Assembly: GCA_043810695.1 (NCBI GenBank)
Contig: JBDRNV010000002.1
Location: 5,015-69,014 of the forward strand
Source: Nanobdellota archaeon
GTDB lineage: Archaea > Nanobdellota > Nanobdellia > Pacearchaeales > GW2011-AR1
Length of the DNA stretch: 64,000 nt
Reading direction: 5' to 3'
Shown one piece after another: positions 3,369 through 57,320 of this stretch. Each line of letters opens with the position of its first letter. Position 1 is the first letter of the stretch. The translations under genes and the position numbers were made by a program. A model generated the notes under the pieces. That model was not told the origin of the DNA. It worked only from the letters and a program-made list of their open reading frames with translations, and did no database searches.

Positions 3369-3430
3369 TAGAAGACAGAGTATTTAGGATAAACAAAGAT
3401 AAAGAAAGGGCAGAGGATCTTTTTATATAG
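3365..3430 (+). pseudogene. 21-codon remnant of a HEPN partner gene
   Basis: ATGA overlap with MNT stop as in the first pair; 'MIEDRVFRINKDKERAEDLFI*' parallels 'MIIKVFPDKEKAKS..' then ends where the nuclease gene end begins. Confidence 0.4.
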
Positions 3431-4175
3431 ATTTCCACAGCACCAATTTCCCTTTTTCATCCCATAAGAAAATCGTGTCTCCTGTTTCTGTTAAATCTAA
3501 TTCAAAAGAAACTTCTTCTCCGTTGCCCAATGTTTTTTCCTGGAAGATTGTGTTGTTTCTTCCTTCTGCTTTTATTCTCCATCCAGTTATATCACATGAA
3601 AAATCACAGATATTTTCCAATGTCTCAGAATCTTTCAGTATTATGCAAGAAGCACATTTATGCGATGAAGCTTCGCAGAGATTAATATTACTATTAATAC
3701 AGCTATCCCAGGCTTTAGTAAATTCTGAATAATGCTTATCTTTGCCAGAAGGAAAATAATAATTACCAAATCCATTTTCTACCATTTTAATATTAATATT
3801 CTCATTTTCTAAAAAAACATATGCAAGCGTTCTGTAATATTTATCATAGCGCTCTTTTCCAAATTCAAGCAGAACTGTTTTATTGAAAACCAGCTGTTCA
3901 AGAAATTCTTTTGCCTCTAAATAATATAACTCTCCGCGTTCAGGTGTGTTAATTCCTAAAAGCCTTATACTTGTGTCATTAGACTCAATTGTATCTCCAT
4001 CTATAACTCTATTCACAAAAACTTCTTGTCTTGTATCGAGGAAATTATTAAGTGTGTTATCAAGAATAGGATAATTTAATATAAATAGGGCAAGAATAAG
4101 TGCAATTAACAAAATAATATCCCTTTTCCTAATTGACTTTTGAATAACTTTTTTATTTAACATTAATAATTGCAA
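3423..4175 (-). CDS. membrane-anchored staphylococcal-nuclease (SNase) homolog with C-terminal lamin-tail-like domain
   Basis: N-terminal TM; 'VIDGDTIE...IRLLGINTPE' and 'RYDKYYRTLAYVF' SNase motifs; C-terminal 'ITGWRIKAEG...FLWDEKGKLV' LTD-like. Confidence 0.75.
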   Translation of the reverse strand: MQLLMLNKKVIQKSIRKRDIILLIALILALFILNYPILDNTLNNFLDTRQEVFVNRVIDGDTIESNDTSIRLLGINTPERGELYYLEAKEFLEQLVFNKTVLLEFGKERYDKYYRTLAYVFLENENINIKMVENGFGNYYFPSGKDKHYSEFTKAWDSCINSNINLCEASSHKCASCIILKDSETLENICDFSCDITGWRIKAEGRNNTIFQEKTLGNGEEVSFELDLTETGDTIFLWDEKGKLVLWKSI

Positions 4176-4717: not shown

Positions 4718-5713
4718 ATGCCAGAGATGAGTAATATGATTCTGCTTGCAGATAAGAATTCTAAAGCTTGGAATTTTGCAGAGAAAATTCAAAATTATAT
4801 CTTAACTCAAAAAGGAAATTTGATTCCTCTTCAAGAAGTAGAAATAACTCATTTCAGAAATGGAGAACTTAACGCTCATGTTCCAGAGAATGTTAGAAAA
4901 AAAGATGTTTACTTTATTCACGATTCCACAAAAAATCCACAGGAATGGTGGATAGAACTTATTTTGATAAGAGATCTTTTGCTTTCTTCATCTGCAGGCT
5001 CTATTACTCTTGTTCTTCCAAATATGCTGTATAGCAGGCAGGATAGAAAAGACAAACCTCATGTTCCAATATCAGCCCGAGCTCTTGCAGAATCAATATC
5101 TCAGGGGGTAAGCAGAATTATCACAATGGATTTGCATGCTCCTCAGATTCAAGGATTCTACCCAGCAACAACTCCTTTAGACAATCTTTACAGTTTTCCA
5201 GAAGCTGTTGACTTTCTAAGAAAAAACTTTTATTCAGATTTAGATAATATTGCAATTATTGCTACAGATGCAGGAGGAGCAGGACGTGCAAGAGCTTTTT
5301 TAAAAAAAATGAACAAAATTCAAGAAAAGGATGTTCTAAAACAAAAATATTCTCTTGCTTTAATGGATAAGATAAGGACAAAAACAGGAGAAGTAGAAGA
5401 AATGAAATTAATAGGAGATATTACTAATCAAAATATTTTAGTTGTTGAGGATATTATTGACTCTGGCGGAACATTATGCAAAGCAGCAGAATTATTAAAG
5501 AAAAACGGAGCAAAAAAATTATTCTGCTATGCAACACATGGAATTTTTACAAAAGGCGTATCAGAGCTTTCTAATTGTTATGATGTTATTCTAACAAGCA
5601 ATACTCATTATTCAGAGAACTCAAACGTGAAGATTGTTGATGTTTCCCCTTTATTTGCAGAAGCTGTTTATAGAGCACAAAAAGGACTTTCTATTTCTGA
5701 ATTGTTTGGATAG
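4718..5713 (+). CDS. prs: ribose-phosphate pyrophosphokinase
   Basis: 'FRNGELNAHV', 'RQDRKD', 'VVEDIIDSGGTL' PRPP-synthase motifs. Confidence 0.9.
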   Translation: MPEMSNMILLADKNSKAWNFAEKIQNYILTQKGNLIPLQEVEITHFRNGELNAHVPENVRKKDVYFIHDSTKNPQEWWIELILIRDLLLSSSAGSITLVLPNMLYSRQDRKDKPHVPISARALAESISQGVSRIITMDLHAPQIQGFYPATTPLDNLYSFPEAVDFLRKNFYSDLDNIAIIATDAGGAGRARAFLKKMNKIQEKDVLKQKYSLALMDKIRTKTGEVEEMKLIGDITNQNILVVEDIIDSGGTLCKAAELLKKNGAKKLFCYATHGIFTKGVSELSNCYDVILTSNTHYSENSNVKIVDVSPLFAEAVYRAQKGLSISELFG

Positions 5714-5715
5714 AT
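5679..5715. repeat. prs 3' end (genuine), left copy of a 37-nt perfect direct repeat
   Basis: aaaaaggactttctatttctgaattgtttggatagat, identical to 6528-6564. Confidence 0.9.
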
Positions 5716-5860: not shown

Positions 5861-6247
5861 ATGAAATTTAGCTCAACACCAGCGATGCAGGCAATAGGTT
5901 GTGTGACTAGTTTAGTTAGCCTAGGTGCTTTTGCAAGTGGTATTTATCAAGGGATTTCTAATTCAAAAGGTATTGAAATAGAACCAAATACGCTAATATT
6001 AATAAGATATGGCCCTATAGCGCTTAATGGTCTTTTAGGAATTCCTGCAGCACATGCTTTTTCAAGTGATAAAGAAAATTTAGAAGAAATGGTTAATGGT
6101 GCACCACCAAACTTAGATCAACAAGAAGCAGAAGGATGTTCAAAAAGTTATGCAGGTTGCACTTTTCCTTTTATAGGTGTTGTAGCTACATCTCTTATTG
6201 AATATGCTGGTTATTTGGTCGGCGGTGCTATTGGTGCATCAGTATGA
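5861..6247 (+). CDS. Gly/Ala-rich membrane protein, unknown
   Basis: 128 aa, hydrophobic N- and C-terminal segments; ATGA-coupled to yidD. Confidence 0.4.
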   Translation: MKFSSTPAMQAIGCVTSLVSLGAFASGIYQGISNSKGIEIEPNTLILIRYGPIALNGLLGIPAAHAFSSDKENLEEMVNGAPPNLDQQEAEGCSKSYAGCTFPFIGVVATSLIEYAGYLVGGAIGASV

Positions 6248-6527: not shown

Positions 6528-6564
6528 AAAAAGGACTTTCTATTTCTGAATTGTTTGGATAGAT
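6528..6564. repeat. second (non-coding) copy of the prs 3' end
   Basis: 37/37 identity with 5679-5715, stop codon included. Confidence 0.9.
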
Positions 6565-6573
6565 TCAAAGCCA

Positions 6574-6657
6574 TGCGGGTGAAAGGATTCGAACCTTCGC
6601 AGGCACTAAGCCACAAGATCTTAAGTCTTGTCCGTTTGACCGCTCCGGCACACCCGC
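6574..6657 (-). tRNA. tRNA-Leu (anticodon UAA), class II, no encoded CCA
   Basis: Hand fold: GCGGGTG acceptor, anticodon stem CAAGA/TCTTG with loop CTTAAGA, long variable arm, T-arm GAAGGTTCGAATCCTTT. Confidence 0.85.
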
Positions 6658-6798
6658 ATGAATGGCGCCGCTGCGACGTTCATCACGCTACAGCGTTTGT
6701 TGTATTTCTCAGAAGTTATGTTGCTTAAAAAAGTTTCTTATTAACTTAATAGCTTAATTTAGAGCAACCTTTATTAATACTTTATACTTTTTTTCTTT

Positions 6799-20449: not shown

Positions 20450-20587
20450 CGCCTCAGGCAGGAATCGAACCTGCGAACCCCGAAGGGTCGGGATCTTTGC
20501 GTTTTCTCCAATAAAGGAGATGTCGTAAGAAGAACCTTGGTTCTTTTTACTTAGCAATCCCGTGCAATACCATTATGCGACTGAGGC
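20450..20587 (-). tRNA. tRNA-Ser (anticodon GCU) with ~57-nt intron
   Basis: Hand fold: GCCTCAG acceptor, CGGGA/TCCCG anticodon stem, loop TTGCTA|A, long variable arm ACCCTTCGGGGTTC, T-arm GCAGGTTCGATTCCTGC; 138 nt minus 81 nt mature. Confidence 0.75.
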
Positions 20588-22248: not shown

Positions 22249-23049
22249 ATGGAAACCGAGAATCTGGGATATGTTAAAGGATTGGGAGAAATTCATAGAA
22301 TTAATGCTCCATTTGTAGTGCAATTGGGAGCTTTTAGAGAAATAGGAATAAAGGCACCTGTAAGCGTAAGAGATACTTCTTTAATAAGGCTCAGCGGAAA
22401 ATCCACAGAAGGAACAAGGACATGTCACGCTCCTGTTTACCTTAAGAATTCTCCTACAATAGTTGCGAGAATGTCTCCTTTGGTAAGAAATTTAGGAATG
22501 GCACAAAAAGCAGTGAATGCTCACAAAAGCAGTGAATATCCTGTTTTTGGTAGCTCGATTTATGCCCAGTGGGAAAAGATTGCAAAACAGGACAAGGGAA
22601 AGAAGCCTGAGAAAAGAAGGGCAATCATACTTCCTGAAAGAAAAGATTTTGACATACATAGGGATTCAGACGAAGCAGAATTTTTCTGGCAGGACAAAAG
22701 AAAAGAATATTTTAAAAGATTTGTTTCAGCAGATAAAGTCATAGCGTATCAAATCGACCCAGAAACGGTTGATTCTCAAGATGGAGCAATTGTGAATTAT
22801 CTCTGGTTCGACGATCCCGAGGATGGTTCTTACTTGTACCTTAGGAGCAGGAGCTTGTACTATGACGACAGGGCTTTCGGGGTGTTGGAGAAAACCAGCG
22901 AAGCTGGTTTGCAAAAAATTTCAGGAAATTTGGTCAGGCATTATACTCAAAGAGAAGCAAAAAAATATACTAATATTCTTCAGGATGTTATGTCTGGAAA
23001 AACAGGAACTTCAAAATTAGAAAAAGTGCTTAAGCATTTTAAAAAATAA
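22249..23049 (+). CDS. DGR-type variable (target) protein candidate
   Basis: Contains the variable repeat 22801-22872 near its C-terminus; locally higher G+C by eye than neighbours. Confidence 0.6.
   Translation: METENLGYVKGLGEIHRINAPFVVQLGAFREIGIKAPVSVRDTSLIRLSGKSTEGTRTCHAPVYLKNSPTIVARMSPLVRNLGMAQKAVNAHKSSEYPVFGSSIYAQWEKIAKQDKGKKPEKRRAIILPERKDFDIHRDSDEAEFFWQDKRKEYFKRFVSADKVIAYQIDPETVDSQDGAIVNYLWFDDPEDGSYLYLRSRSLYYDDRAFGVLEKTSEAGLQKISGNLVRHYTQREAKKYTNILQDVMSGKTGTSKLEKVLKHFKK
22801..22872 (+). other. variable repeat (VR) of a diversity-generating-retroelement-like pair
   Basis: 72-nt ungapped match to 23310-23381; 10 of 11 mismatches lie at adenines of the other copy. Confidence 0.75.
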
Positions 23050-23309
23050 AAACAGAAAGCAATTTAAACATAAGTTTCTTTTTTTATCTGCCTTGACTCT
23101 TATTTGAAGCATATGTACAAAAACATATGCTGGTGAGAATAATAGAAAGGCCACACGCCAGTTTATTAAGGCATTATTCAAGTTTATTTTAAGTCATAAA
23201 ATTCAGAAGCGACTTGCGAGAAGCTTCGGTGCGCAAATTAAATTTTGCTGTGTGCAGGCAAGATTCCTGACGTGAAAATTATTCATGAGATAAATTGGCT
23301 ACAAAAAGT

Positions 23310-23381
23310 CTCTGGTTCAACAATCCCGAGAATGGTTCTAACTTGAACCTTAGGGACAGGAACTTGAACAATGACAACAGG
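23310..23381 (+). other. template repeat (TR), non-coding
   Basis: AAY-rich (reads LWFNNPENGSNLNLRDRNLNNDNR); the tracked ORF 23295..23480 is probably not a gene. Confidence 0.75.
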
Positions 23382-23577: not shown

Positions 23578-26442
23578 ATGGCTTACATAAAAAAACTGGT
23601 GATACATGGCTTTAAGAGTTTTCCAAGAAAAACAGAGATTCCTTTTACAAAAGGAATAAATATAATTTTAGGCCCGAATGGCTCTGGAAAATCAAACGTA
23701 TCTGATGCTTTATGCTTTGTTCTGGGAAGACTAAGCATTAAATCAATGCGTGCTGCAAAAGCAGGCAATTTAATTTTTATGGGAACAAAAGAAGCCTCTC
23801 CTGCAAAAGAAGCCTCTGTTGAAATAATTTTTGATAATTCAGATAAAACATTTTCTTTGGATAAAAATGAAATAATTATTAAGAGAATTGTAAGAAGAAA
23901 CGGGCAAAGCATTTACAAAATTGATAATGAAACAAAAACAAGACAGGAAGTTCTTTCTTTGCTTGCTCAGGCTGGAATAGATCCACAAGGATTTAATATT
24001 ATTCTTCAGGGAGAGATACAGAGTTTTGTGAGAATGCAGCCAGAAGATAGAAGAACAGTAATTGAAGAAGTTGCAGGAATATCTGTTTATGAATCAAGAA
24101 AAGAAAAGTCACTTCACGAGCTTGAAAAGACAGAAGACAGACTTAAAGAAATCAGCTCTATTCTCAGAGAGAGAACTTCTTATTTGAATAATCTTGAAAA
24201 AGAAAGACAGCAGGCACTAAGATTCAAGAAACTTGAGGCAGATATAAAAAAGTTTAGAGCAAGTATAATCTATTTCAACCTTCATAAAAAAAGAAAAGAA
24301 AATGAGAAAATAAACTCTGATATAGAACAAAGAAATAATGAAATAGAAAAAATAAAGAAAGTAATCATTGGAATTGAAACAGAAACAAAAAATTTTTCTT
24401 TTAAAATAGATAACATAAATTCTGAAATACAAAAATCTACAGGACTTGAACAGGAAAAACTTAATCAAGAAATAGCCAATTTAAGGGCAGAACTTGCAGG
24501 GCTTAATGTAAAACTTGAAAACCAAGAATCAAGACTTTCTAATTTATTAAAACAAAAAGAAGAATTCCAAAAATCGCTGAAAGAATCAGAGCTTTCAATA
24601 AAAGAGCTTCAGAAAGAGTCTCCTACACCAGAAAGAAATGCAAAAGAAATAGAGGAAAAAAAGAAAGAACTTGAGAAGCTTGAAGAAAAAAGAAAAAAAT
24701 TCTACATGATTAAATCAGAAATAAACTCTGTCAAAGAAAGAATTGAAGATAAAAATTCTCTTCTTCAGAATTATACAAACGAATCTAATTTTTTAATAAA
24801 GCAAATTGAATCCCTTTCAATACAAATTTTTGATAAAAAAGCAAATTCTGAAAAACTAGGCAGGTTTAAAATCTCTTTATCAGAAAAAAAAGAATTCCTT
24901 AATAGTTTAGTAAAAAAAGAAATAGAACTTGAAAAAAATAGTTCTATTAATTTATCAGAAATAGAAAATCAAAAAAGAATTATAGAAAAAATATCAAAAT
25001 TAGATATATGTCCTGTATGTAAAAGCAAAATAACTCCAAAACATATGGAAGAAATAAAAAAAGAAATCATCCCCCACATAGAATCTTTAAAAAAGACAAT
25101 AGAATCCTCTGATTCTGAATTAAAAACAATATATCAGAAAAAAGAAATAATAATAAAAGATATCGATGAACTAGCTCAGCAGATATCAAAAACAGATACA
25201 GATCTAAATAAACTTTCAAATATAAATGATAAAAAAAATCAGATTAAAATTTTATATGAAAAATTAGAAAATCTAAAAAAAGAGCTAGCAGAATTAACTA
25301 AGAAAAAAACTAATCTTGAAAGAATTTTTGAAACAGACTCTAATATAGAGCAAAAATATGAGACTTTGAAAATAGAAGTTCAGGAAATATCTCTAAGAAC
25401 CAAAAAAACACTAAAATCAGAAGTTGAATTTAAACAGAGAGAAATTGAAAGAATAAAAATTTCTTTGAAACAAATATCTCGGGAAGAGACTGATGCAAAT
25501 GAAGAATTATTCTCTCTTAAGAAAATATTTGAAGAAAAGAATAAAATTTTAACCAAAAAAAGACAGCAGGAAGAAGAATTAAATAAAAAATTCGAAGAAA
25601 TGCTTTCTGAAAAAGAGAGATTGCAGAAAAAAATAAGAGAAAAAGAAACAGATACTCTTTCAAAAAAACATGCAATTCATATTATAGAACTTGAAATAAA
25701 TGAATTCAAAATTGAAAAAGCAAGAGTTGATGCAGAGATAGAGAATTTTGAAACAGAGATGCTTGAATTTTCAAATGTTGAAATAATAAAGACAAATAAG
25801 GATGTTCTGGTTGAAAGGCTTGCTAAATCACAGGAAATTATTTCAAGAGTAGGAACTGTCAATCTCCGCTCCCTTGAAGTTTATGATTCAATAAAAAAAG
25901 AGTATGATGTTGTAAAAGAAAAAGCAGGAATAATAGAAAAAGAAAAAGATAATATATTAAAAGTAATACATGAAATAGATGTAAAAAAGAAAAAATCATT
26001 TATTCAGACACTTAAAAAAATAAACGAGCTTTTTTCAAGAAATCTATCTCAATTGATTCCAAAAGCAGAGGTTTTCCTTGAGCTTGAAAACAACCAAAAC
26101 CCGTTTGAACCAGGTTCTGGAGTTCAGATAATTGTAAAGACAGGACACGGGAAATACTTTGATGTTAAATCTCTTTCAGGAGGAGAACAGACTCTTGTTG
26201 CTCTCTCGCTTATATTTGCGATTCAGGAATATCGTCCTTACTACTTTTATCTTCTAGACGAAATTGATGCAGCTCTTGACAAAAGAAATTCAGAAAGGCT
26301 TGCCGGGCTTCTTAACAAATACATGCTTAATGGGCAGTATATAGTTATCACACACAATGATGAAATTATTTCAAAGGCAACAAATCTTTATGGAATAAGT
26401 ATGCATGATGGAATTTCTAAAATTATTAGTCTTAAAGTGTAG
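23578..26442 (+). CDS. smc: SMC-family ATPase with central CxxC in place of a hinge domain
   Basis: SMC head motifs 'GPNGSGKSN', 'ILQGEIQSF', 'EEVAGISVYESRK', 'LSGGEQTLVALSLIFAIQ', 'LLDEIDAALD'; CPVC at aa 478-481 of 954 (25009-25020). Confidence 0.8.
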   Translation: MAYIKKLVIHGFKSFPRKTEIPFTKGINIILGPNGSGKSNVSDALCFVLGRLSIKSMRAAKAGNLIFMGTKEASPAKEASVEIIFDNSDKTFSLDKNEIIIKRIVRRNGQSIYKIDNETKTRQEVLSLLAQAGIDPQGFNIILQGEIQSFVRMQPEDRRTVIEEVAGISVYESRKEKSLHELEKTEDRLKEISSILRERTSYLNNLEKERQQALRFKKLEADIKKFRASIIYFNLHKKRKENEKINSDIEQRNNEIEKIKKVIIGIETETKNFSFKIDNINSEIQKSTGLEQEKLNQEIANLRAELAGLNVKLENQESRLSNLLKQKEEFQKSLKESELSIKELQKESPTPERNAKEIEEKKKELEKLEEKRKKFYMIKSEINSVKERIEDKNSLLQNYTNESNFLIKQIESLSIQIFDKKANSEKLGRFKISLSEKKEFLNSLVKKEIELEKNSSINLSEIENQKRIIEKISKLDICPVCKSKITPKHMEEIKKEIIPHIESLKKTIESSDSELKTIYQKKEIIIKDIDELAQQISKTDTDLNKLSNINDKKNQIKILYEKLENLKKELAELTKKKTNLERIFETDSNIEQKYETLKIEVQEISLRTKKTLKSEVEFKQREIERIKISLKQISREETDANEELFSLKKIFEEKNKILTKKRQQEEELNKKFEEMLSEKERLQKKIREKETDTLSKKHAIHIIELEINEFKIEKARVDAEIENFETEMLEFSNVEIIKTNKDVLVERLAKSQEIISRVGTVNLRSLEVYDSIKKEYDVVKEKAGIIEKEKDNILKVIHEIDVKKKKSFIQTLKKINELFSRNLSQLIPKAEVFLELENNQNPFEPGSGVQIIVKTGHGKYFDVKSLSGGEQTLVALSLIFAIQEYRPYYFYLLDEIDAALDKRNSERLAGLLNKYMLNGQYIVITHNDEIISKATNLYGISMHDGISKIISLKV
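26401..26442. repeat. smc 3' end (genuine), left copy
   Basis: 42 nt, 41/42 identical to 26471-26512. Confidence 0.9.
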
Positions 26443-26470
26443 CATAACTTCGTCCAAGCTTGGCCGTCGT
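26443..26470. repeat. 28-nt near-palindromic element (CCAAGCTTGG core)
   Basis: cataACTTCGTCCAAG|CTTGGCCGTCGT; related elements at 56115-56153 and 52339-52366. Confidence 0.7.
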
Positions 26471-26512
26471 ATGCATGATGGAATTTCTAAAATTATTAGT
26501 CTTAAAGTATAG
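26471..26512. repeat. second copy of smc 3' end
   Basis: atgcatgatggaatttctaaaattattagtcttaaagtatag; followed by a TATA-like ttatatac and the RelBE-like cassette. Confidence 0.9.
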
Positions 26513-26548: not shown

Positions 26549-26782
26549 ATGGATACAACAATACAAATAAGCAAAGAACTTTTAGGAAAATTACAAAAAA
26601 TGAAGATGCATAATAAAGAAAGTTACGAGGATATAATTTGGGATTTAATAGAAGATAGAATGGAACTCTCTGAAGAAACAAAAAGGGATATTGCAGAATA
26701 TGAAATAGATTTAAAGAAAGGAAAATCTAGAAAATTCCATAAATGGGAAGATGTTAAAAAGGAGCTAAATCTAAATGTATGA
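26549..26782 (+). CDS. antitoxin of RelE/ParE module (putative)
   Basis: 77 aa, overlaps toxin start by 8 nt. Confidence 0.55.
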   Translation: MDTTIQISKELLGKLQKMKMHNKESYEDIIWDLIEDRMELSEETKRDIAEYEIDLKKGKSRKFHKWEDVKKELNLNV

Positions 26783-27026
26783 AATAATTCTTTCAGAAAA
26801 AGCTAAAAAACAATTAAAAAAATTAAATAAATTAACTCAGGAAAGAATAGGTTCTGTTATTGAAAGAATAAAAATTCGTCCGTTTTCTTACGATATAAAA
26901 AAACTTCAAGGAACATCTTATTACAGAGCAAGAGTGGGTGAATATAGAATTATTTTAGATATTCAACAAAATAAGTTAATTATTATTGTAATAGAAATAG
27001 GACATAGAAAAAATATTTATGATTAA
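26775..27026 (+). CDS. relE: RelE/ParE-family toxin
   Basis: 'YYRARVGEYRIILDI...IIVIEIGHRKNIY' typical RelE C-terminal half. Confidence 0.75.
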   Translation: MYEIILSEKAKKQLKKLNKLTQERIGSVIERIKIRPFSYDIKKLQGTSYYRARVGEYRIILDIQQNKLIIIVIEIGHRKNIYD

Positions 27027-27418: not shown

Positions 27419-28033
27419 ATGAACAAATCAGAACTAATAGAACAGCTAAAAAGAATGGGTTTTTCAGAAAAAATCCTTGAGGCTTTTTCTTTAATTAAAA
27501 GAGAAAAATTTGTTTCAGAAGAGCTTCAAAAAAAAGCTTATGATGACACAGCTCTTCCTATTGGACACGGACAAACAATTTCTCAGCCATATACAATTGC
27601 TTTAATGCTTTCAGAACTGGATTTAAAAGAAGGACAAAAAATACTTGAAATAGGCTCTGGTTCTGGTTATGTTCTTGTACTTCTTTCCTATATACTTGGA
27701 CAAAAGAGTAAAATATTTGGGTTAGAAGTGATAAAACAGCTTGCAAAAAAATCAAAAGAAAATCTTGAGGATTATGGAAATATAAAGATTTACAATAAAA
27801 ATGGTTTTAACGGATTGCCTGATGAAGCACCTTTTGATAGAATTCTTATTAGTGCAGCTGCCCGTGAAATTCCAAAGAAAATTTTAAATCAGCTTAAGGA
27901 TGGTGGAATTCTTGTTGCTCCCAAAGGGCCTGTTTTTGAGCAGAATATTGTTGTGATTCAGAGACAAGGAGACAAATTTGTTACAAAAACAGAAATTCCT
28001 GGTTTTGTCTTTGTGCCGTTTGTTGAAGGGTAG
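27419..28033 (+). CDS. pcm: protein-L-isoaspartate O-methyltransferase
   Basis: 'GHGQTISQPYTIALMLSEL' and 'ILEIGSGSGY'. Confidence 0.85.
   Translation: MNKSELIEQLKRMGFSEKILEAFSLIKREKFVSEELQKKAYDDTALPIGHGQTISQPYTIALMLSELDLKEGQKILEIGSGSGYVLVLLSYILGQKSKIFGLEVIKQLAKKSKENLEDYGNIKIYNKNGFNGLPDEAPFDRILISAAAREIPKKILNQLKDGGILVAPKGPVFEQNIVVIQRQGDKFVTKTEIPGFVFVPFVEG
28001..28033. repeat. pcm 3' end (genuine)
   Basis: 20-nt core tttgtgccgtttgttgaagg (28010-28029) is identical to 28713-28732. Confidence 0.85.
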
Positions 28034-28708: not shown

Positions 28709-28736
28709 AGTTTTTGTGCCGTTTGTTGAAGGAGAA
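28702..28736. repeat. copy of pcm 3' end closing the vapBC cassette
   Basis: ggtttagagtttttgtgccgtttgttgaaggagaa. Confidence 0.85.
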
Positions 28737-36963: not shown

Positions 36964-38127
36964 TTACAGACTAATCAGTTTTATTTTAGTGTCTGTTGTT
37001 GCAAAATTCTTAGCAATAATTAACTGGCATTTTGCGTCTGCTGCAGCATTCAATATCGGCATTGTTGCAGTGCCATCAACAGATAGCGCATAAATTTCCT
37101 TTAGTTTTTTTAAAGAGGAAACCAGGCTTTTTCCAGAAACTTTTTTTATTTCATTCATCTCTTTATCAAGAATTATAGCTTTTTCTTTTCCAGAATTTTC
37201 TTTGAATATTTGTTTTAGTTTTTCCTCTTCATTTTCATTAGTGCTTGAAGCAGTTTCTTCATTATTTCTTTTATTATAATTAGTTTGATAAGGAGCCCTG
37301 GAGAGATATCTCCTTTTGGATAAAAATTCCCCAACAGAAATTTTTTTCCTTAAATTCATTAATATCTCTTTTCCTGTAAGCTCTTCAACTTCCTTTCCAT
37401 CTGGAGCAACAACAATGTATTTTATTCTTGCGTTATCTAATACATTTTTTATTATAAGTTCTCCTCCTCTATCTCCATCAACAAAAAGAATTATATCTTT
37501 TTCTTCGCTTAATTTTCTAATACTGTCAGGAAGTTTTGTGCCATTCATTGCAACAACATTTTTTACGCCAGCTCTTATAAGATTTAATACATCTGCACGG
37601 CCTTCAACAACAATTATCTCTTGTTCAGACAATTCTCCACAAGGCAGTTTTTCCTCTCCATATTCTTTTACTTCTGCTACTCTCGCAGAGTCTTTGATTT
37701 CTTTTGAAATTTCTCTTGAGTCTGTCTTGCCGCTTATCTCAGACATTAGTTTTTTGGCTCTTTCAATTATGTAATCTCTTTTGCTGCCTCTAACATCTTC
37801 AATTCTTTCTACTTCAACCTGTGCGTCACAAGGACCTATCTTTTCAATTGTCTCAACAGCAGCTGCAATAAGAGTTGTTTCTGATTGGTCAAGAGCTGTT
37901 GGAACTTTTATTGTTCCTGTAGTTGTCTTGTCTTTTCTTTCAATTTCAACCTCTATTCTTCCAATCTTTCCCTCTTTCTGCAGTTCTCTCATCTCAAGAT
38001 CAGCGCCAAGCAAACCTTCTGTCTGGCCGAAAATAGCTCCTATTATATCTGGCTTTTCCAAGGCACCTTCTACTCTAAAATTTGCATGTATCATATATTT
38101 TATAGATACAGGACTTATTTTTGCCAT
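36964..38127 (-). CDS. dnaG: archaeal DnaG primase (TOPRIM)
   Basis: 'YMIHANFRVEGALEKPDIIGAIFGQTEGLLG' N-terminus, 'IVVEGRADV' and 'LFVDGDRGG' TOPRIM motifs. Confidence 0.85.
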   Translation of the reverse strand: MAKISPVSIKYMIHANFRVEGALEKPDIIGAIFGQTEGLLGADLEMRELQKEGKIGRIEVEIERKDKTTTGTIKVPTALDQSETTLIAAAVETIEKIGPCDAQVEVERIEDVRGSKRDYIIERAKKLMSEISGKTDSREISKEIKDSARVAEVKEYGEEKLPCGELSEQEIIVVEGRADVLNLIRAGVKNVVAMNGTKLPDSIRKLSEEKDIILFVDGDRGGELIIKNVLDNARIKYIVVAPDGKEVEELTGKEILMNLRKKISVGEFLSKRRYLSRAPYQTNYNKRNNEETASSTNENEEEKLKQIFKENSGKEKAIILDKEMNEIKKVSGKSLVSSLKKLKEIYALSVDGTATMPILNAAADAKCQLIIAKNFATTDTKIKLISL

Positions 38128-43774: not shown

Positions 43775-43800
43775 AATTAAGAGAAATTCCACCAAGCTGG

Positions 43801-52306: not shown

Positions 52307-52338
52307 TTATTGGTTTTCGGCCAAACCCTTCCTCTGCT
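52307..52338. repeat. copy B2 of the aEF-2 3' end
   Basis: ttattggttttcggccaaacccttcctctgct; 23/32 vs 53380-53411. Confidence 0.65.
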
Positions 52339-52366
52339 TTGACTTTTAGGCGAAGTAACTAAAGGC
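52339..52366. repeat. degenerate copy of the near-palindromic element
   Basis: minus strand GCCTTTAGTTACTTCGCCTAAAAGTCAA vs rps7-locus GGCTTTCATTACTTCGCCCAAGCTTGGTCAA. Confidence 0.6.
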
Positions 52367-52402
52367 TTATTGGTTTTCACTGAGGCCTTTACGTTGCCTC
52401 AT
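52367..52402. repeat. copy B1 of the aEF-2 3' end
   Basis: ttattggttttcactgaggcctttacgttgcctcat; 27/36 vs 53380-53415. Confidence 0.75.
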
Positions 52403-53379: not shown

Positions 53380-55569
53380 TTACTGATTCTCGCTCAAACC
53401 CTTACGTTGCCTTATCTTTCTTACAATGTCTGGCTGAAGGCTTGCAGGAACTTTTTCAAACAGCTGGTCTAACAAAGACGATGTTCCTCTTCCTTCTGTC
53501 GCGCTTCTTAAATCACTGCTCCACCCAATCATTTCTGCGACAGGAAGTTTTGCTTTCATGTCTGCTTGTGTACCTTCTTGTCTTACTTCAAGCATCTGTC
53601 CTCTTTTTCCTCCAACTAATTTTGTAACAGCACTTAAGAATTTATCAGGCATTTCTATAAGATAAATCTGTATTGGTTCAAAAAGATAGGCATTTGCTTT
53701 TTTCATTGCTTCTACAATTGCTTCTCTTACAGCAGGATAAACCTGTGCAGGCCCTCTGTGAATTGCATCTTCGTGAAGTCTTGTATCTACAAGTGAAACC
53801 CTAAGTTTTATACAGGGTTCTCTTGCTAAAGGTCCCTGGTTAATAACCATTTCAAATGCATCAAGAACCATTTCAATTACTTCTCCTATATGAACCTCTC
53901 CTCTTGTTTCATCAAGAAAAATATTTCCTTTGTAAATATCTCTTACATTTCGTATTGTATCACCAGACCATCCTAATTTTGAAAGAACATTTGCAATTTC
54001 CTCATTTTTTTTCTTAATTCTTCCTTCTCTTAATTCTCCGCTTTTTATTGCCTTGTATACTTCATCTTCAAGAGGCTCAACTTTCATATAAAAGCTGTTA
54101 TGTTTATTAGGGCTTCTTCCTTCTATTTCAGGAGATTCTCGACCTATTGTTTCTCTGTAAACTATGATTGGAGAAGAGGTTTTAACATCAAGTCCTTTTT
54201 CTGTTTTAATTCTGTTTTCTATAATCTCAAGATGAAGTTCTCCCATTCCAGACATAAGGCTCTCTCCTGTTTGCTCGTTTATTTCTATTTTTATGGAAGG
54301 GTCTTCTTTTGCAACTTTTTTTAGAATCTCAACAAGCTTTGGAAGGTCAGATGTTTTTGTAACTTCAATTGCTTTTGTTATAACTGGTTCAAAAATATGT
54401 TTGAGTTCTTCAAAAGAAGTTTCTGGTTCAATTGTTACTGTTTCTCCTGCTTCACCAGTAACACCTGCTATTGCCAAAACATTTCCACATCCTATTTCTT
54501 CAAGCTGTTCAGGCTTTATTCCATTATAAATAAATACCTGCTGTATTTTCTGTCTTTTTTTTGCAAGATTTAGATAGACTTCCATCCCTTGTTTTAATGT
54601 TCCTGAGAATAATCTTCCAGCTGAAATCTCTTTTCCAGACTTTGGGTCTATTACAATTCTTGTTATAACAAATGCTGGTTTTCCTTTTGGATCGCAGTTT
54701 ATAAGGGATTTTCCAAAATCACTATTTAAATCTCCTCTCCATATTTTTGGAATTCGATATTTTTGTGCTTCCAGAGGGCTTGGAAGGTGCTTAACAACCA
54801 TATCCAGAAGAACTTCATAAAGAGGAGCATTTTTCCAGCACCATTCTTTTCTTTCAGCATCTGACATTTCATAAAGATTGAAAATATCTTTAAAAGTTAT
54901 TTTTTTCTTTTGCATAAAAGGAACAGAAAGCGCCCAGTTTTCTCTTGCAGAACCAAAAGCAACGCTTCCGTCTTTTATATCAACTTCCCACTTTTTCTTG
55001 AATTCAGATTCTGCAATATTATTAATTAATTTATTGAAGTCTTCATATATTTTTATGAATCTTTGCTGCATCTGCTCTGGCGTTAGTTTAAGCTCTTTAA
55101 TTAGCCTGTCTACTTTATTGATGAACAAAACAGGTTGTACCCTTTCTCTTAATGCTTGTTTTATAACAGTCTCTGTCTGAGGCATTATTCCTTCAACAGC
55201 ACATACAAGAACAATTGTTCCATCAATAGCCCTCATCGCTCTTGTAACATTTCCAGAGAAATCCACATGTCCTGGTGTATCAATAAGATTAATCAAATAC
55301 TCATCTCCATGAAATTCATGAACCATTGAAACGTTTGCAGCATCAACTGTCAATAATCTCTCCTGTTCGTCTGCATGCTGCCAGGTTGCCATACCTGCTT
55401 CCAAATCTCCTGCAGATTTTACAGCCATAAATCCAGAAGCAGCGAGAAGATTATCTGTCATTGCCGTCTTGCCATGATGAATATGTGCAGAAGTTGCAAT
55501 ATTACGAATATATTTTTGTTCTCTGCTAAGTCTCTGAATTTTCTTGAACTGTGTTTCTTTCTCTACCAT
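53380..55569 (-). CDS. fusA: translation elongation factor aEF-2
   Basis: 'SAHIHHGKTA', 'DTPGHVDF', diphthamide loop 'HEDAIHRGPAQV'. Confidence 0.9.
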   Translation of the reverse strand: MVEKETQFKKIQRLSREQKYIRNIATSAHIHHGKTAMTDNLLAASGFMAVKSAGDLEAGMATWQHADEQERLLTVDAANVSMVHEFHGDEYLINLIDTPGHVDFSGNVTRAMRAIDGTIVLVCAVEGIMPQTETVIKQALRERVQPVLFINKVDRLIKELKLTPEQMQQRFIKIYEDFNKLINNIAESEFKKKWEVDIKDGSVAFGSARENWALSVPFMQKKKITFKDIFNLYEMSDAERKEWCWKNAPLYEVLLDMVVKHLPSPLEAQKYRIPKIWRGDLNSDFGKSLINCDPKGKPAFVITRIVIDPKSGKEISAGRLFSGTLKQGMEVYLNLAKKRQKIQQVFIYNGIKPEQLEEIGCGNVLAIAGVTGEAGETVTIEPETSFEELKHIFEPVITKAIEVTKTSDLPKLVEILKKVAKEDPSIKIEINEQTGESLMSGMGELHLEIIENRIKTEKGLDVKTSSPIIVYRETIGRESPEIEGRSPNKHNSFYMKVEPLEDEVYKAIKSGELREGRIKKKNEEIANVLSKLGWSGDTIRNVRDIYKGNIFLDETRGEVHIGEVIEMVLDAFEMVINQGPLAREPCIKLRVSLVDTRLHEDAIHRGPAQVYPAVREAIVEAMKKANAYLFEPIQIYLIEMPDKFLSAVTKLVGGKRGQMLEVRQEGTQADMKAKLPVAEMIGWSSDLRSATEGRGTSSLLDQLFEKVPASLQPDIVRKIRQRKGLSENQ

Positions 55570-55637
55570 TTTTTTCTCCAGAGGAGAGAGTGGACGGACT
55601 TTGTTCGTACTCTTTCAGCCATATTATATTGAATCAA

Positions 55638-55708: not shown

Positions 55709-56089
55709 ATGAAAAAAATATTAATACAAGATAGATTTTCTACTGATAGTCATATTGATTCATTAAAGAATCTTTTAGAGTTGGAGTTTAAGGATAAACA
55801 AATTGAATTCAATCTTGTTTTCTGTTTGAGAGGCGCTAAATTTCCTATAATCGATTACAATTTAATTATTTCACACCCACCTATTTTTGATAATTGCTGT
55901 GTTCCATTGATTGAACAAGCTGTTAGAAAGAATGTTCCTGTTGTTTTTAGATATCATACTAAATATCCTCATGGTAATGAAATAGAAGCCATAGCTCAAA
56001 ATCTTGGGATGGATATAAACTATAGTAGTAGTGGAAATTGGAGAGAAGTATATGGTAATATAATCAAAAAGTTTATAGAAAAAGATTAA
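55709..56089 (+). CDS. hypothetical protein (cassette ORF, antisense to the ribosomal operon)
   Basis: 126-aa ORF whose stop abuts the rps7-end copy. Confidence 0.4.
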   Translation: MKKILIQDRFSTDSHIDSLKNLLELEFKDKQIEFNLVFCLRGAKFPIIDYNLIISHPPIFDNCCVPLIEQAVRKNVPVVFRYHTKYPHGNEIEAIAQNLGMDINYSSSGNWREVYGNIIKKFIEKD

Positions 56090-56114: not shown

Positions 56115-56153
56115 ACTTTGACCAAGCTTGGGCGAAGTAATGAAAGCCGACAA
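56115..56153. repeat. 39-nt near-palindromic element (CCAAGCTTGG core)
   Basis: ACTTTGACCAAG|CTTGGGCGAAGT (10/12 arm pairs) plus aatgaaagccgacaa. Confidence 0.7.
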
Positions 56154-56774
56154 TTATCGTGCCGAGTCGGCTTGCTTTTCAGATTCAATTTTCTTTTTAA
56201 CAGCAAAGCTTTCTTGATTTCCTTCAGAAGCAAGCATTATTTCTTCTGCAATTCCCTGAGCAAGATCTTTTTTCTTGCCGAATGCTTTTTCAGAAGCACC
56301 ATGAATAATATGCTTTAAAGCAAGATTTACTCTTCTTAAAGGAGATACGTCAACTGCCTGGGGATATCTTGCTCCACCATATTCTATTACTGTTATTTCA
56401 TCTCTTGGTGCAGAATTTTCAACAGCTTTTATGAGAATCTCTATAGGATTTTTTCCTGTTTTTTTTGCTATTTGTTCAAAAGCATCAAGTACAATCCCTG
56501 TATTTTTTGAATATTTTCCAGTTGAAGTCCCAACCATAAGTTTATGTTTTTTTCCTCTATGCCCTGCAACACCTATTTTATTTATCAGCCTTTCAACTAT
56601 ATTGACTTTTGTCTGCCCGAATTTCTGAACATTTCTTCCATGGCTTTTCAGAGCCAGCTTTGGAGTTAGGTTTATCGCATCCTTAAGTCCTACATCTTTT
56701 ACCTGAATTCCTTCTGTCTCATATAAATCAAAAATTTTGAATGTAAGTGGCTGTATGTTTTTTTGTTCTGTCAT
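56154..56774 (-). CDS. rps7: 30S ribosomal protein S7 (uS7)
   Basis: 'VNIVERLINK', 'IEYGGARYPQAVDVSP.RR' conserved uS7 blocks. Confidence 0.9.
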   Translation of the reverse strand: MTEQKNIQPLTFKIFDLYETEGIQVKDVGLKDAINLTPKLALKSHGRNVQKFGQTKVNIVERLINKIGVAGHRGKKHKLMVGTSTGKYSKNTGIVLDAFEQIAKKTGKNPIEILIKAVENSAPRDEITVIEYGGARYPQAVDVSPLRRVNLALKHIIHGASEKAFGKKKDLAQGIAEEIMLASEGNQESFAVKKKIESEKQADSAR

Positions 56775-56775
56775 T

Positions 56776-56997
56776 TTATCTTGATGTTAATGGAGTTTTT
56801 CTTTCAGATATAATTATTTTTGTTTTTAAATTTAGATAAAGAATTCGAGATCCTTTATTTATATCAAATTCATTTACAACATATAAATTATCTCCTCTTT
56901 CTTCTACTTTTATGAGTTCATCATATCTGTCTTCTTCTTCATTTATTCTGCTTGTTTTTCCTTCTCCACGCAAAATTTTATCTAGGAATCTTGTCAT
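56776..56997 (-). CDS. unknown 73-aa protein embedded between rps12 and rps7
   Basis: 1-2 nt spacers to both neighbours. Confidence 0.45.
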   Translation of the reverse strand: MTRFLDKILRGEGKTSRINEEEDRYDELIKVEERGDNLYVVNEFDINKGSRILYLNLKTKIIISERKTPLTSR

Positions 56998-56999
56998 TT

Positions 57000-57320
57000 T
57001 TATGCTCCCATCTTACTATTTAATTCGGAATGATAACTTTTTTGCTGAACAAAATCTTTTATGTTAGTAAAGTCTTCTCCAAAATCCATTTTATATTCAT
57101 TTACTTTTATTTTATCCTTGTATATATAAACAATACTAGTTCTAAATTTAGTTCTATCTTTTCTTTCTAAAATTAAGAAACCACTTCCCATATCAATCAA
57201 TTGGTTTGCTGTATGATAAATATGCGGAATTAATTCTTCTAATTGTTCAGCCCCAAAAATATTTTCAACACCTACTAATTCCTCATATAAGTCCTCTGTT
57301 GTGTTTTCTAAATTAATCAT
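57000..57320 (-). CDS. unknown 106-aa protein embedded between rps12 and rps7
   Basis: ATGA start/stop overlap with rps12. Confidence 0.45.

Follow-up and report, generated by a model that had tools for sequence, protein, structure and literature searches.

Hairpin palindromes at duplicated gene ends in a DPANN archaeon: a candidate family of miniature insertion elements

Why are the ends of conserved genes in an archaeal genome present twice, with a short imperfect palindrome between the two copies? The question is raised by a window of 64,000 nucleotides (nt) from a Nanobdellota archaeon (contig JBDRNV010000002.1, positions 5,015 to 69,014), in which one such palindrome lies at 56115-56153, behind the ribosomal protein gene rps7. 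On balance, this palindrome appears to be one of a family of miniature non-coding hairpin insertion elements in Nanoarchaeota-type DPANN archaea. Each insertion duplicates 11-44 nt of its target and nearly always has the direction of the transcript of its host gene. The window, an archaeal segment of low GC content (about 0.30), carries many small accessory genes. Its minus strand carries a gene series from rpoB and rpoA to rps12, rps7 and aEF-2, and the genes smc and aEF-1alpha are also present. The nearest homologues of rps7 and of ThrRS carry Pacearchaeota or Nanoarchaeota annotation.

The original prediction placed palindromes at the ends of smc, rps7 and aEF-2, always between two gene-end copies and in one orientation. 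The three quoted strings were confirmed by reading the window sequence. The features at rps7 are given below in the direction of the gene, with the upstream copy of the gene end as L and the downstream copy as R.

56154..56774, minus strand: rps7
56178-56154, minus strand: L copy AAAGCAAGCCGACTCGGCACGATAA, the functional terminus of rps7 (..KQADSAR*)
56139..56153, minus strand: variable left extension TTGTCGGCTTTCATT between the TAA stop and the hairpin, conserved in the related loci L156 and L159
56138-56115, minus strand: hairpin core ACTTCGCCCAAGCTTGGTCAAAGT (covariance model 38.1 bits, E 4e-11)
56114-56090, minus strand: R copy AAAGCAGGTAGATAGCGCACGATAA, an untranslated second terminus (KQVDSAR*) that begins directly after the hairpin

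The peptide KQADSAR is the C-terminus in 120 of the 120 best rps7 homologues. The rps7 copies are 25-27 nt long; their final 11 nt (GCACGATAATT) are the same in L and R, and the middle has diverged mostly at synonymous sites. The segment GTCGGCTT of the left extension can pair with AAGCCGAC of the gene end (8 bp). At smc, gene-end copies of 42-44 nt with one differing position flank the hairpin.

23578..26442, plus strand: smc
26401-26442, plus strand: L copy, the functional terminus including TAG (44-nt alignment, 1 mismatch)
26447-26470, plus strand: hairpin core ACTTCGTCCAAGCTTGGCCGTCGT, after TAG and then CATA (26443-26446) (covariance model 31.4 bits, E 1.6e-8)
26471-26512, plus strand: R copy of the terminus (target-site duplication), followed by a RelBE-like pair (26549..27026)

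The aEF-2 array contains four termini, with a centrally deleted hairpin between the second and the third.

52367-52402, minus strand: terminus copy 2 (RQRKGLSENQ*), the upstream flank of the decayed hairpin
52366-52337, minus strand: decayed hairpin with left extension, GCCTTTAGTT then ACTTCGCCTAAAAGTCAAAG; the outer stem ACTT/AAGT is retained and the centre deleted
52307-52340, minus strand: terminus copy 3 (QRKGLAENQ*), the downstream flank, followed by a HicA/HicB-like pair

Copy 2 differs from the real gene end at eight positions, all synonymous. The aEF-2 copy of the hairpin scores only 10 bits with the covariance model, and an orthologous copy follows the aEF-2 stop directly in L157; it is a deletion derivative of the hairpin family. 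A fourth member, which the original prediction had overlooked, follows aEF-1alpha.

40443-40420, minus strand: fourth family member AACTCGTTTAAGCGTAGCCGAGTT (covariance model 23 bits, E 2e-5)

This hairpin starts at the A of the aEF-1alpha TGA stop and has no recognisable gene-end duplicate. Thus, the rule of two flanking gene-end copies holds at smc, rps7 and aEF-2 but not at aEF-1alpha, and every copy in the window is in the sense direction of its host gene. The 17-mer ACTTCGYCCAAGCTTGG, with three or fewer mismatches, occurs only at the smc and rps7 sites (four matches over both strands). A chance or generic palindrome was rejected, since 0.06 matches are expected in the window and the 24-28-mer recurs only in DPANN contigs. 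The string CCAAGCTTGG by itself is not significant in the window. The weaker motif CCAGCTTGG that had been pointed out at 43790-43800 has no flanking duplicate and receives no score from the covariance model; it is probably a chance match and not a family member.

The unit is a 24-nt hairpin with the order N4, C/U, G, Y, CC, ARGCKT, GG, Y, C, A/G, N4', to which some copies add a variable 5' extension or a second small hairpin. Looser scans of the loci showed that the centre, CG-Y-CC-ARGCKT-GG-Y-CA, is retained while the outer four base pairs change wholly and yet stay complementary (ACTT/AAGT, ACCT/AGGT, GATT/AATC, AACT/AGTT, AGAA/TTCT and TAAA/TTTA). Among 14 distinct variants, 95.9% of the cells are paired, and compensatory changes on both sides occur at five of the seven stem pairs. 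The covariation score is 0.444, compared with 0.133 in shuffles, and none of 500 shuffles reaches the observed value; controls with a slid register collapse. This strong stem covariation bears out the earlier proposal of a hairpin-forming mini-element. The ARGCKT loop is conserved together with the C.A and Y.Y mismatches, as the same proposal had asked of the mismatched arm positions. Position 7.18 is always a mismatch, and position 5.20 is C.A, with U.G in one family and U-A in L163.

The complementary strand (RNA -7.2 kcal/mol, DNA -4.6) folds better than the sense strand, since the C.A mismatch turns into U.G or T.G there. Since the arms covary, and a symmetric protein bound to a duplex would conserve them, the relevant form is taken to be a single-stranded hairpin of either strand. 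A second upstream hairpin is present in a subset of copies (L153, L121, L065, L032, L017 and rps7); upstream stems of at least 6 bp occur in 21% of cases and at 10% of random positions, which is a modest enrichment. No stable long-range RNA structure exceeding the shuffles was detected around rps7 (z -0.9 and 0.0).

The 22-28 nt core was found by exact-pattern scans in about 45 low-GC contigs of Woese-, Pace- and Nanoarchaeota. A scan of one genome per species with an exact pattern of 16 specified bases gave 119 matches. Most are bacterial matches that lack the right half and are read as chance, as expected for 16 specified bases; about 10 of the 119 share the extended 28-mer ACTTCGYCCAAGCTTGGYCAAAGTAAAG, and all of these are Woese-, Pace- or Nanoarchaeota. 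The stricter 20-base pattern was found in 36 metagenome contigs, all with a GC content of 0.30-0.38. The IMG/VR viral contigs contained no exact match, and a relaxed pattern gave only high-GC chance matches there, on which grounds a viral or plasmid origin was rejected. Rfam, searched at gathering and at E-value thresholds, gave no match for any of the hairpins. Searchable papers contain neither the exact nucleotide strings nor the exact peptide strings, and topical searches gave nothing relevant; the hairpin element is apparently undescribed. Tandem pairs of hairpins, 4-30 nt apart and often of different subfamilies, were found at five loci.

L123, 955-1003: tandem hairpin pair
L125, 4448-4499: tandem hairpin pair
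L128, 663-722: tandem hairpin pair
L154, 2248-2325: tandem hairpin pair
L162, in the ThrRS linker: tandem hairpin pair

These pairs point to repeated insertion at or beside an existing copy. A CRISPR-like array was rejected, as the two hairpins of L154, 30 nt apart, are each flanked by their own diverged duplicates and form no array.

The placement of about 45 non-redundant copies was examined. There are 24 copies inside long open reading frames (ORFs), which are open across the hairpin for 120-760 aa, and about 13 copies lie 0-17 nt past the stop codon of a sense ORF. Three are located at tRNA 3' ends, and a few in a 5' untranslated region or in the spacer RNA of a diversity-generating retroelement (DGR). 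The hosts include ThrRS, GluRS, family-B DNA polymerase (PolB), Cbf5, the CCA-adding enzyme, GatD, Elp3 and the N-terminal tail of rpS17, in addition to rps7, EF-2, EF-1alpha, smc and tRNAs. Each of the 24 copies within ORFs is in frame and leaves no fewer than 120 aa open: 19 are read in one reading frame, five in a second and none in the third; the frame used by the 19 copies encodes T-S-S/P-K-L-G-Q-S. About 40 copies are sense and one is antisense. The exception is the L089 family, whose orientation was judged by the C.A asymmetry. Strand composition follows gene direction, and the sense strands are purine-rich. The hairpin lies within ORFs in over half of its copies and is thus no generic terminator. 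An intrinsic terminator, which would have a stable GC-rich stem with a T/U run behind it and stand after genes, was rejected on the 24 ORF-internal copies, a sense stability of -3.3 kcal/mol and the lack of an adjacent T run. An archaeal bulge-helix-bulge intron, in which a 4-bp helix lies between two bulges of 3 nt, does not fit either, since the element is a simple hairpin with 1x1 mismatches and the ORF-internal copies are all in frame, as if translated.

Flanking duplicates mark the hairpins as insertions. In the clear cases, the downstream copy begins 0-2 nt past the 3' end of the hairpin, and the upstream copy stops 0-27 nt before it, which leaves the variable left extension (TTCG.. in L145; an extra GG, CATA or 15 nt elsewhere). 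The duplications usually open purine-rich (AAAG..), and lengths of 11, 12-13, 18-21, 25-27, 33 and 42-44 nt were seen. The near-perfect duplicates are as follows.

L154: 33 nt
L148: 18 nt
L145: 11 nt
tRNA ends of L123 and L125: 12-13 nt
smc of the window: 42-44 nt

Empty sites were found at ThrRS. About 9 of 62 alignable close homologues carry an insertion, always at a single site (after SREIRxx) and each with the REIRxx peptide duplicated, and the carriers are spread over a range of 60%-95% in identity with the query. Among orthologues with an empty site, the closest is L164 (84%), which contains a single AGGGAGATTCGTGTTGAA. In L162, a canonical hairpin lies between identical 18-nt copies (21 nt when the preceding AGT is counted). 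L125 and L163 contain variant hairpins, and their flanking copies are more alike within a locus than they are to the copies of other lineages. Two readings account for this pattern: the site was entered repeatedly, each time with identical limits, or the two copies evolved in concert. The last three bases of the ThrRS hairpin equal the Ser codon before the upstream copy (AGT in L162, AGC in L163), and hairpin bases 1-3 are complementary to that codon; the smc upstream copy is likewise preceded by AAGT.

The rps7 locus was compared in its relatives. In L159 (97% relative), it is the same as in the window, with an identical hairpin, and in L156 (89% relative), the orthologous insertion shows a compensatory change of C-G to U-A in the stem. 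In L161 (86% relative), 12 nt separate the stop of rps7 and the start of aEF-2, and hairpin, second terminus and ORF126 are all missing. L157 (87% relative) contains a relic second rps7 terminus, AGCTAGCGAGATAATTAAT, at 720-745 after the rps7 stop and without a hairpin, which suggests hairpin loss or another replacement event at the rps7 end. Three small ORFs (106 aa, about 74 aa and 126 aa) are present inside the otherwise universal rps12-rps7-aEF-2 operon of the window (56775-57320, minus strand; 55709-56089, plus strand), and rps12 and rps7 abut or overlap in L160 and L161. The start of aEF-2 is duplicated as well (55567-55622, minus strand), in the order ATGGCTGAAA, 43 nt (GAGTACGAACAAAGTCCGTCCACTCTCTCCTCTGGAGAAAAAA) and ATGGTAGAGAAAG; L156 and L157 hold a single ATGGCTGAAAAAGAAAC at this place. 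The insert there is small and of another kind, and its duplication includes the start codon. The footprint or internal deletion of a larger element with terminal inverted repeats was rejected for the hairpins, as a search of about 400 kb of DPANN loci turned up no separated half-sites.

The palindrome had also been proposed as a recombination site of the cassette system in the window. In its general form, this explanation makes the hairpin a recombination site in folded single-stranded form (attC- or CTX-attP-like, or dif-like with an 11-6-11 arrangement) at which a recombinase joins a gene-end copy and a cassette downstream of conserved genes. The imperfect palindrome, its conserved mismatches and the better folding of the bottom strand are in keeping with it. 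The order of gene end, hairpin, diverged gene-end copy and small accessory cassette is found at four places (rps7 with ORF126, aEF-2 with HicAB, smc with RelBE, and aEF-2 of L157 with VapBC), and weak evidence comes from the order of the Ala- and Ser-type aEF-2 termini, which is reversed between the window and L157. A systematic scan of the window for duplicated termini, with the covariance model run at E up to 10, revealed hairpin-free cassettes of 0.6-1.3 kb between duplicated termini at four places.

5679-5715 and 6528-6564, plus strand: cassette at PRPP synthase/tRNA-Leu, with a 37/37 nt duplicate of the PRPP-synthase gene end
28007-28029 and 28710-28732, plus strand: duplicates (22/23 nt) of the cassette by 27419..28033
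37002 and 36335, minus strand: duplicates of the cassette by 36964..38127
3467 and 2198, minus strand: duplicates of the cassette by 3423..4175

The PRPP-synthase cassette, of about 0.8 kb with an ORF at 5861..6247, also has a 15-nt fragment of the 3' end of tRNA-Leu (6573-6658, minus strand) in its flank, and resembles an element that has integrated at a tRNA 3' end and lacks an integrase. The other three cassettes, by eye VapC-like, NYN-like and nucleotidyltransferase/HEPN-like, duplicate the terminus of the upstream gene; some of their duplicates are identical and others have diverged with coding sense kept. Another tRNA of the window, at 20450-20587 (minus strand), matches Rfam with 46 bits over 138 nt, is unreported by ARAGORN and probably contains an intron.

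The covariance model gave no match in the hairpin-free cassettes, even at E up to 10, and no hairpin lies between copies 1 and 2 or copies 3 and 4 of aEF-2. Because gene-end duplicates of the same kind flank at least four cassettes without a hairpin, the hairpin is not the attachment site of the cassette system. Furthermore, most copies elsewhere, including the ORF-internal ones, are solo insertions with simple or perfect target duplications and no cargo, and target duplication is not made by known site-specific recombination. No third gene-end copy closes the cassettes after the R copies, and no integrase or other recombinase gene was seen by eye among the window ORFs, for which no profile search was run. 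The geometry of a tyrosine-recombinase core fits (dif/lox, 11-6-11; conserved inverted arms about a spacer of 6-8 bp in duplex DNA), but this candidate was rejected because the outer arms covary so as to keep pairing within the strand, and because the insertions carry duplications. A folded recombination site is accordingly considered unlikely.

The junctions recall retroposition, in which a reverse transcriptase (RT), for example one of the DGR-type enzymes that are common in these lineages, would turn a small hairpin RNA into DNA at a nick, in the manner of a short interspersed nuclear element (SINE). Such copying would produce variable duplications with a precise 3' and a ragged 5' junction. 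The observed duplications of 11-44 nt, the R copy always 0-2 nt from the hairpin, the variable or truncated left end and the usually purine-rich duplication starts (AAAG..) are in keeping with it. A DGR is present in the window, with a variable region (VR) and a template region (TR), and the L072 hairpin lies inside the same kind of DGR spacer.

22249-23381, plus strand: DGR region
22800-22872, plus strand: VR, in ORF266
23091-23307, plus strand: RT-16 RNA (Rfam, 76 bits), between VR and TR
23309-23381, plus strand: TR, with an 85% match to VR and 10 of 11 differences at TR adenines

However, no RT gene was found in the window, near its DGR included, or beside any copy, and there is no A-tail. 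DGR enzymes are template-specific. Target-primed reverse transcription alone does not account for the co-orientation with host genes, and it leaves the recurring duplication limits of ThrRS unexplained. Retroposition is thus an improbable source of the copies. A DGR target hairpin, which would have a GC-rich stem and a loop of 4 nt and adjoin the VR on its 3' side, was rejected, as the DGR of L072 has its own GACGC-GTAA-GCGTC by the VR and the element is about 150 nt further. A TR/VR relation between the flanking copies was rejected as well, since the rps7 differences are not adenine-specific.

The favoured reading thus remains that of a family of miniature hairpin insertion elements. The hairpin itself, the insertions with their duplications, the empty sites, the bias in orientation and the taxonomic range are shown by the observations above. 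The elements would be non-autonomous and mobilised in trans via a single-stranded intermediate, with a structure-specific factor reading the conserved internal loop. In dense genomes with almost no spacer DNA, selection may keep only the harmless insertions, most others being lethal. Three classes would survive, and they are the ones observed: insertions with a duplication across a stop codon, where the upstream gene end stays whole and the downstream copy is dead (as at smc, rps7 and aEF-2); those with a duplication across a tRNA 3' end; and in-frame insertions in tolerant linkers and tails. As a stop-spanning duplication leaves the frame and the C-terminus untouched, the gene-end location is probably best explained by survivorship.

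Several points weigh against this reading. No transposase, integrase or RT was linked to or adjoined any copy (window ORFs by eye), and a larger parent element with the same ends was not found in the limited sample of about 400 kb of related loci; with copies free of both enzyme and parent, mobility is deduced from its products only. The duplication range of 11-44 nt is unlike that of any characterised transposase, the ThrRS duplication limits recur in three lineages, and the sense strand folds weakly (-3.3 kcal/mol as RNA, -0.9 as DNA). The differences between the two copies at rps7, aEF-2, L017, L030 and L069 fall mostly on synonymous sites (Ser TCG and AGC in rps7, for example). The rps7 R copy shows only three changes between the window and L156, synonymous in its frame. 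Finally, the hairpins of L124 and L135 are 100% identical 24-mers between flanks that are about 70% identical; together with the compensatory change in L156, this suggests in-situ function rather than pure selfishness.

A decaying duplicate would not differ mainly at synonymous sites; the copies therefore diverged as working gene ends in different lineages. The DNA downstream of the hairpin or gene end has probably been exchanged between lineages that each carried the insertion. The rps7 upstream copy and extension are the same in the window and L156. Weak support for such exchange comes from the aEF-2 termini, in which the Ala type and the Ser type take reversed positions about the hairpin in L157 relative to the window, and from the accessory cassettes that come after downstream copies. 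Under the insertion-element reading, exchange would be a second step: a crossover at the conserved hairpin or gene end, or close by, would yield synonymously diverged downstream copies. Alternatively, the downstream copy of post-stop insertions might be expressed after removal of the intervening DNA or RNA; the in-frame position of every ORF-internal copy makes this unlikely as a rule. Read-through, frameshift or bypass into the downstream copy was rejected, since the frames are inconsistent between smc and rps7.

The identity of the 24-mers in the L124 and L135 orthologues amid diverged flanks and the compensatory change in the orthologous copy of L156 are also what would be expected of a primarily functional cis-acting RNA or DNA signal, a site for a host protein on many housekeeping transcripts whose spread is secondary. 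The near-constant sense orientation and the prevalence of translation and replication genes among the hosts agree with this. On the other hand, the position in the transcript is arbitrary (5' untranslated region, N-terminal tails, linkers, post-stop sites and tRNA trailers), the distribution among close orthologues is patchy, the sense-strand structure is marginal, and the conservation could come from recent spread or copy correction. A primary cis-acting role is quite improbable.

A further explanation dispenses with dedicated machinery: microhomologies in the purine-rich sense strands would prompt template switching during replication or ectopic copying. Subsets of copies have parts of the left flank in common (TTCGGTCT in L094 and L122; GCARAGYCYTTNNCT in L153, L121, L136 and L032), and junction microhomology is seen in the AAGT before the smc L copy and in the AGT and AGC before the ThrRS L copies, which match the last 3 nt of the hairpin. 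Strand composition tracks gene direction, and switching within purine-rich sense strands would account for the orientation and for the common parts of the left flank. The conserved loop and mismatches across orders are left unexplained, as is the question why only this palindrome spreads, and template switching is very unlikely to be the cause.

Within the insertion-element reading, the enzymology is a separate matter. Duplications of 11-44 nt do not suit enzymes with a fixed ruler (DDE transposases, casposase/Cas1), and HUH enzymes and site-specific recombinases produce none. It is possible, though doubtful, that the family is a previously unrecognised type of mobile element, a hairpin of about 24 nt whose structure- and strand-specific insertion is tied to transcription or a single-stranded intermediate, with target choice and outer stem set by base pairing to the target; a new insertion mechanism is put forward only tentatively.

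DPANN archaea have tiny, gene-dense genomes with few recognised transposons. In them, the family would be an unrecognised source of genome change, adding 8-14 residues to ThrRS, GluRS, PolB, Cbf5 and ribosomal proteins, duplicating gene and tRNA termini, and conserved at base level across orders. The element would offer a simple reason for duplicated gene ends in DPANN genomes and a marker for the dynamics of insertion and loss in uncultured lineages, and it points to a hairpin-recognising protein. The hairpins may also serve as portable crossover points for DNA swaps downstream of conserved genes among diverged DPANN. If long variable duplications and strict orientation do reflect new chemistry, the element would be of interest to the fields of mobile DNA and genome engineering.

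The element lacks at least one defining feature of each known system with which it was compared. Integrative elements at the 3' ends of tRNAs or other genes, with attL/attR arrays, resemble it in the duplicated termini that flank the insert, the arrays at aEF-2 and at a tRNA 3' end, and the element-borne terminus that keeps the gene intact, whereas the insert here is 24-50 nt and gene-free. The aEF-2 gene is a casposon target in Thaumarchaeota (PMC4046053). Casposons differ in giving duplications of 14-15 bp and in carrying cas1 and polB.

Miniature inverted-repeat transposable elements derived from DDE transposons are likewise miniature non-autonomous repeats with target duplications, but their duplication length is fixed and their ends are shared with an autonomous insertion sequence (IS), neither of which was found here. 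Like the element, the integron attC site is an imperfect palindrome with a uniform orientation to its neighbours, in which conserved unpaired positions and strand asymmetry could specify the folded strand. In contrast, the R''(RYYYAAC)...R'(GTTRRRY) cores, IntI, attI and an array of hairpin-built cassettes are not seen here. As the original prediction had stated, the motif does not match the attC cores, and its ends ACTT../..AAGT covary freely. The element is accompanied by target duplication and is 24 nt long, compared with 57-141 nt for attC. A folded attC strand has conserved extrahelical or unpaired bases; the element has conserved mismatches at positions 5.20 and 7.18, which are of the 1x1 kind and not attC-type bulges.

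Repetitive extragenic palindromes (REP), their mosaics (BIME) and IS200/IS605-derived elements, which depend on HUH enzymes (RAYT/TnpA), show a similar short imperfect hairpin that is recognised as a structure, with covarying stems and conserved irregularities, and they too are dispersed in tens of copies, many of them at gene 3' ends. Their insertion involves no target duplication and takes place 3' of a fixed tetra- or pentanucleotide, and they are extragenic, whereas long and variable duplications of 11-44 nt are found here and over half of the copies lie within ORFs. No HUH (Y1) transposase or RAYT was seen by eye in the window ORFs, with no whole-genome or profile census made. SINEs share the variable duplication length, the exact 3' end and the ragged 5' end. 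They differ in having an A-rich tail or one matched to a long interspersed nuclear element, and an RT/endonuclease partner, none of which was found here; past AAAG, itself part of the duplication, no tail follows.

The Rickettsia palindromic elements (RPE), which Ogata and co-workers reportedly described in 2000, are said to be selfish palindromic repeats placed in frame in essential protein genes and in RNA genes of a reduced genome and translated as additional peptide segments, with no transposase known. By analogy only, the family described here is also palindromic and non-coding and lies in frame in essential protein genes of a reduced genome. The RPE are bacterial and about 100-150 bp long, whereas the element here is archaeal and 24-40 nt long, with target duplications of 11-44 nt, a near-absolute sense orientation and many post-stop copies; sequence, size and taxon give no relationship between the two. 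The closest counterparts are the RPE in behaviour, the REP/IS200-type hairpins together with attC in anatomy, and the SINE-like elements in the structure of the junctions.

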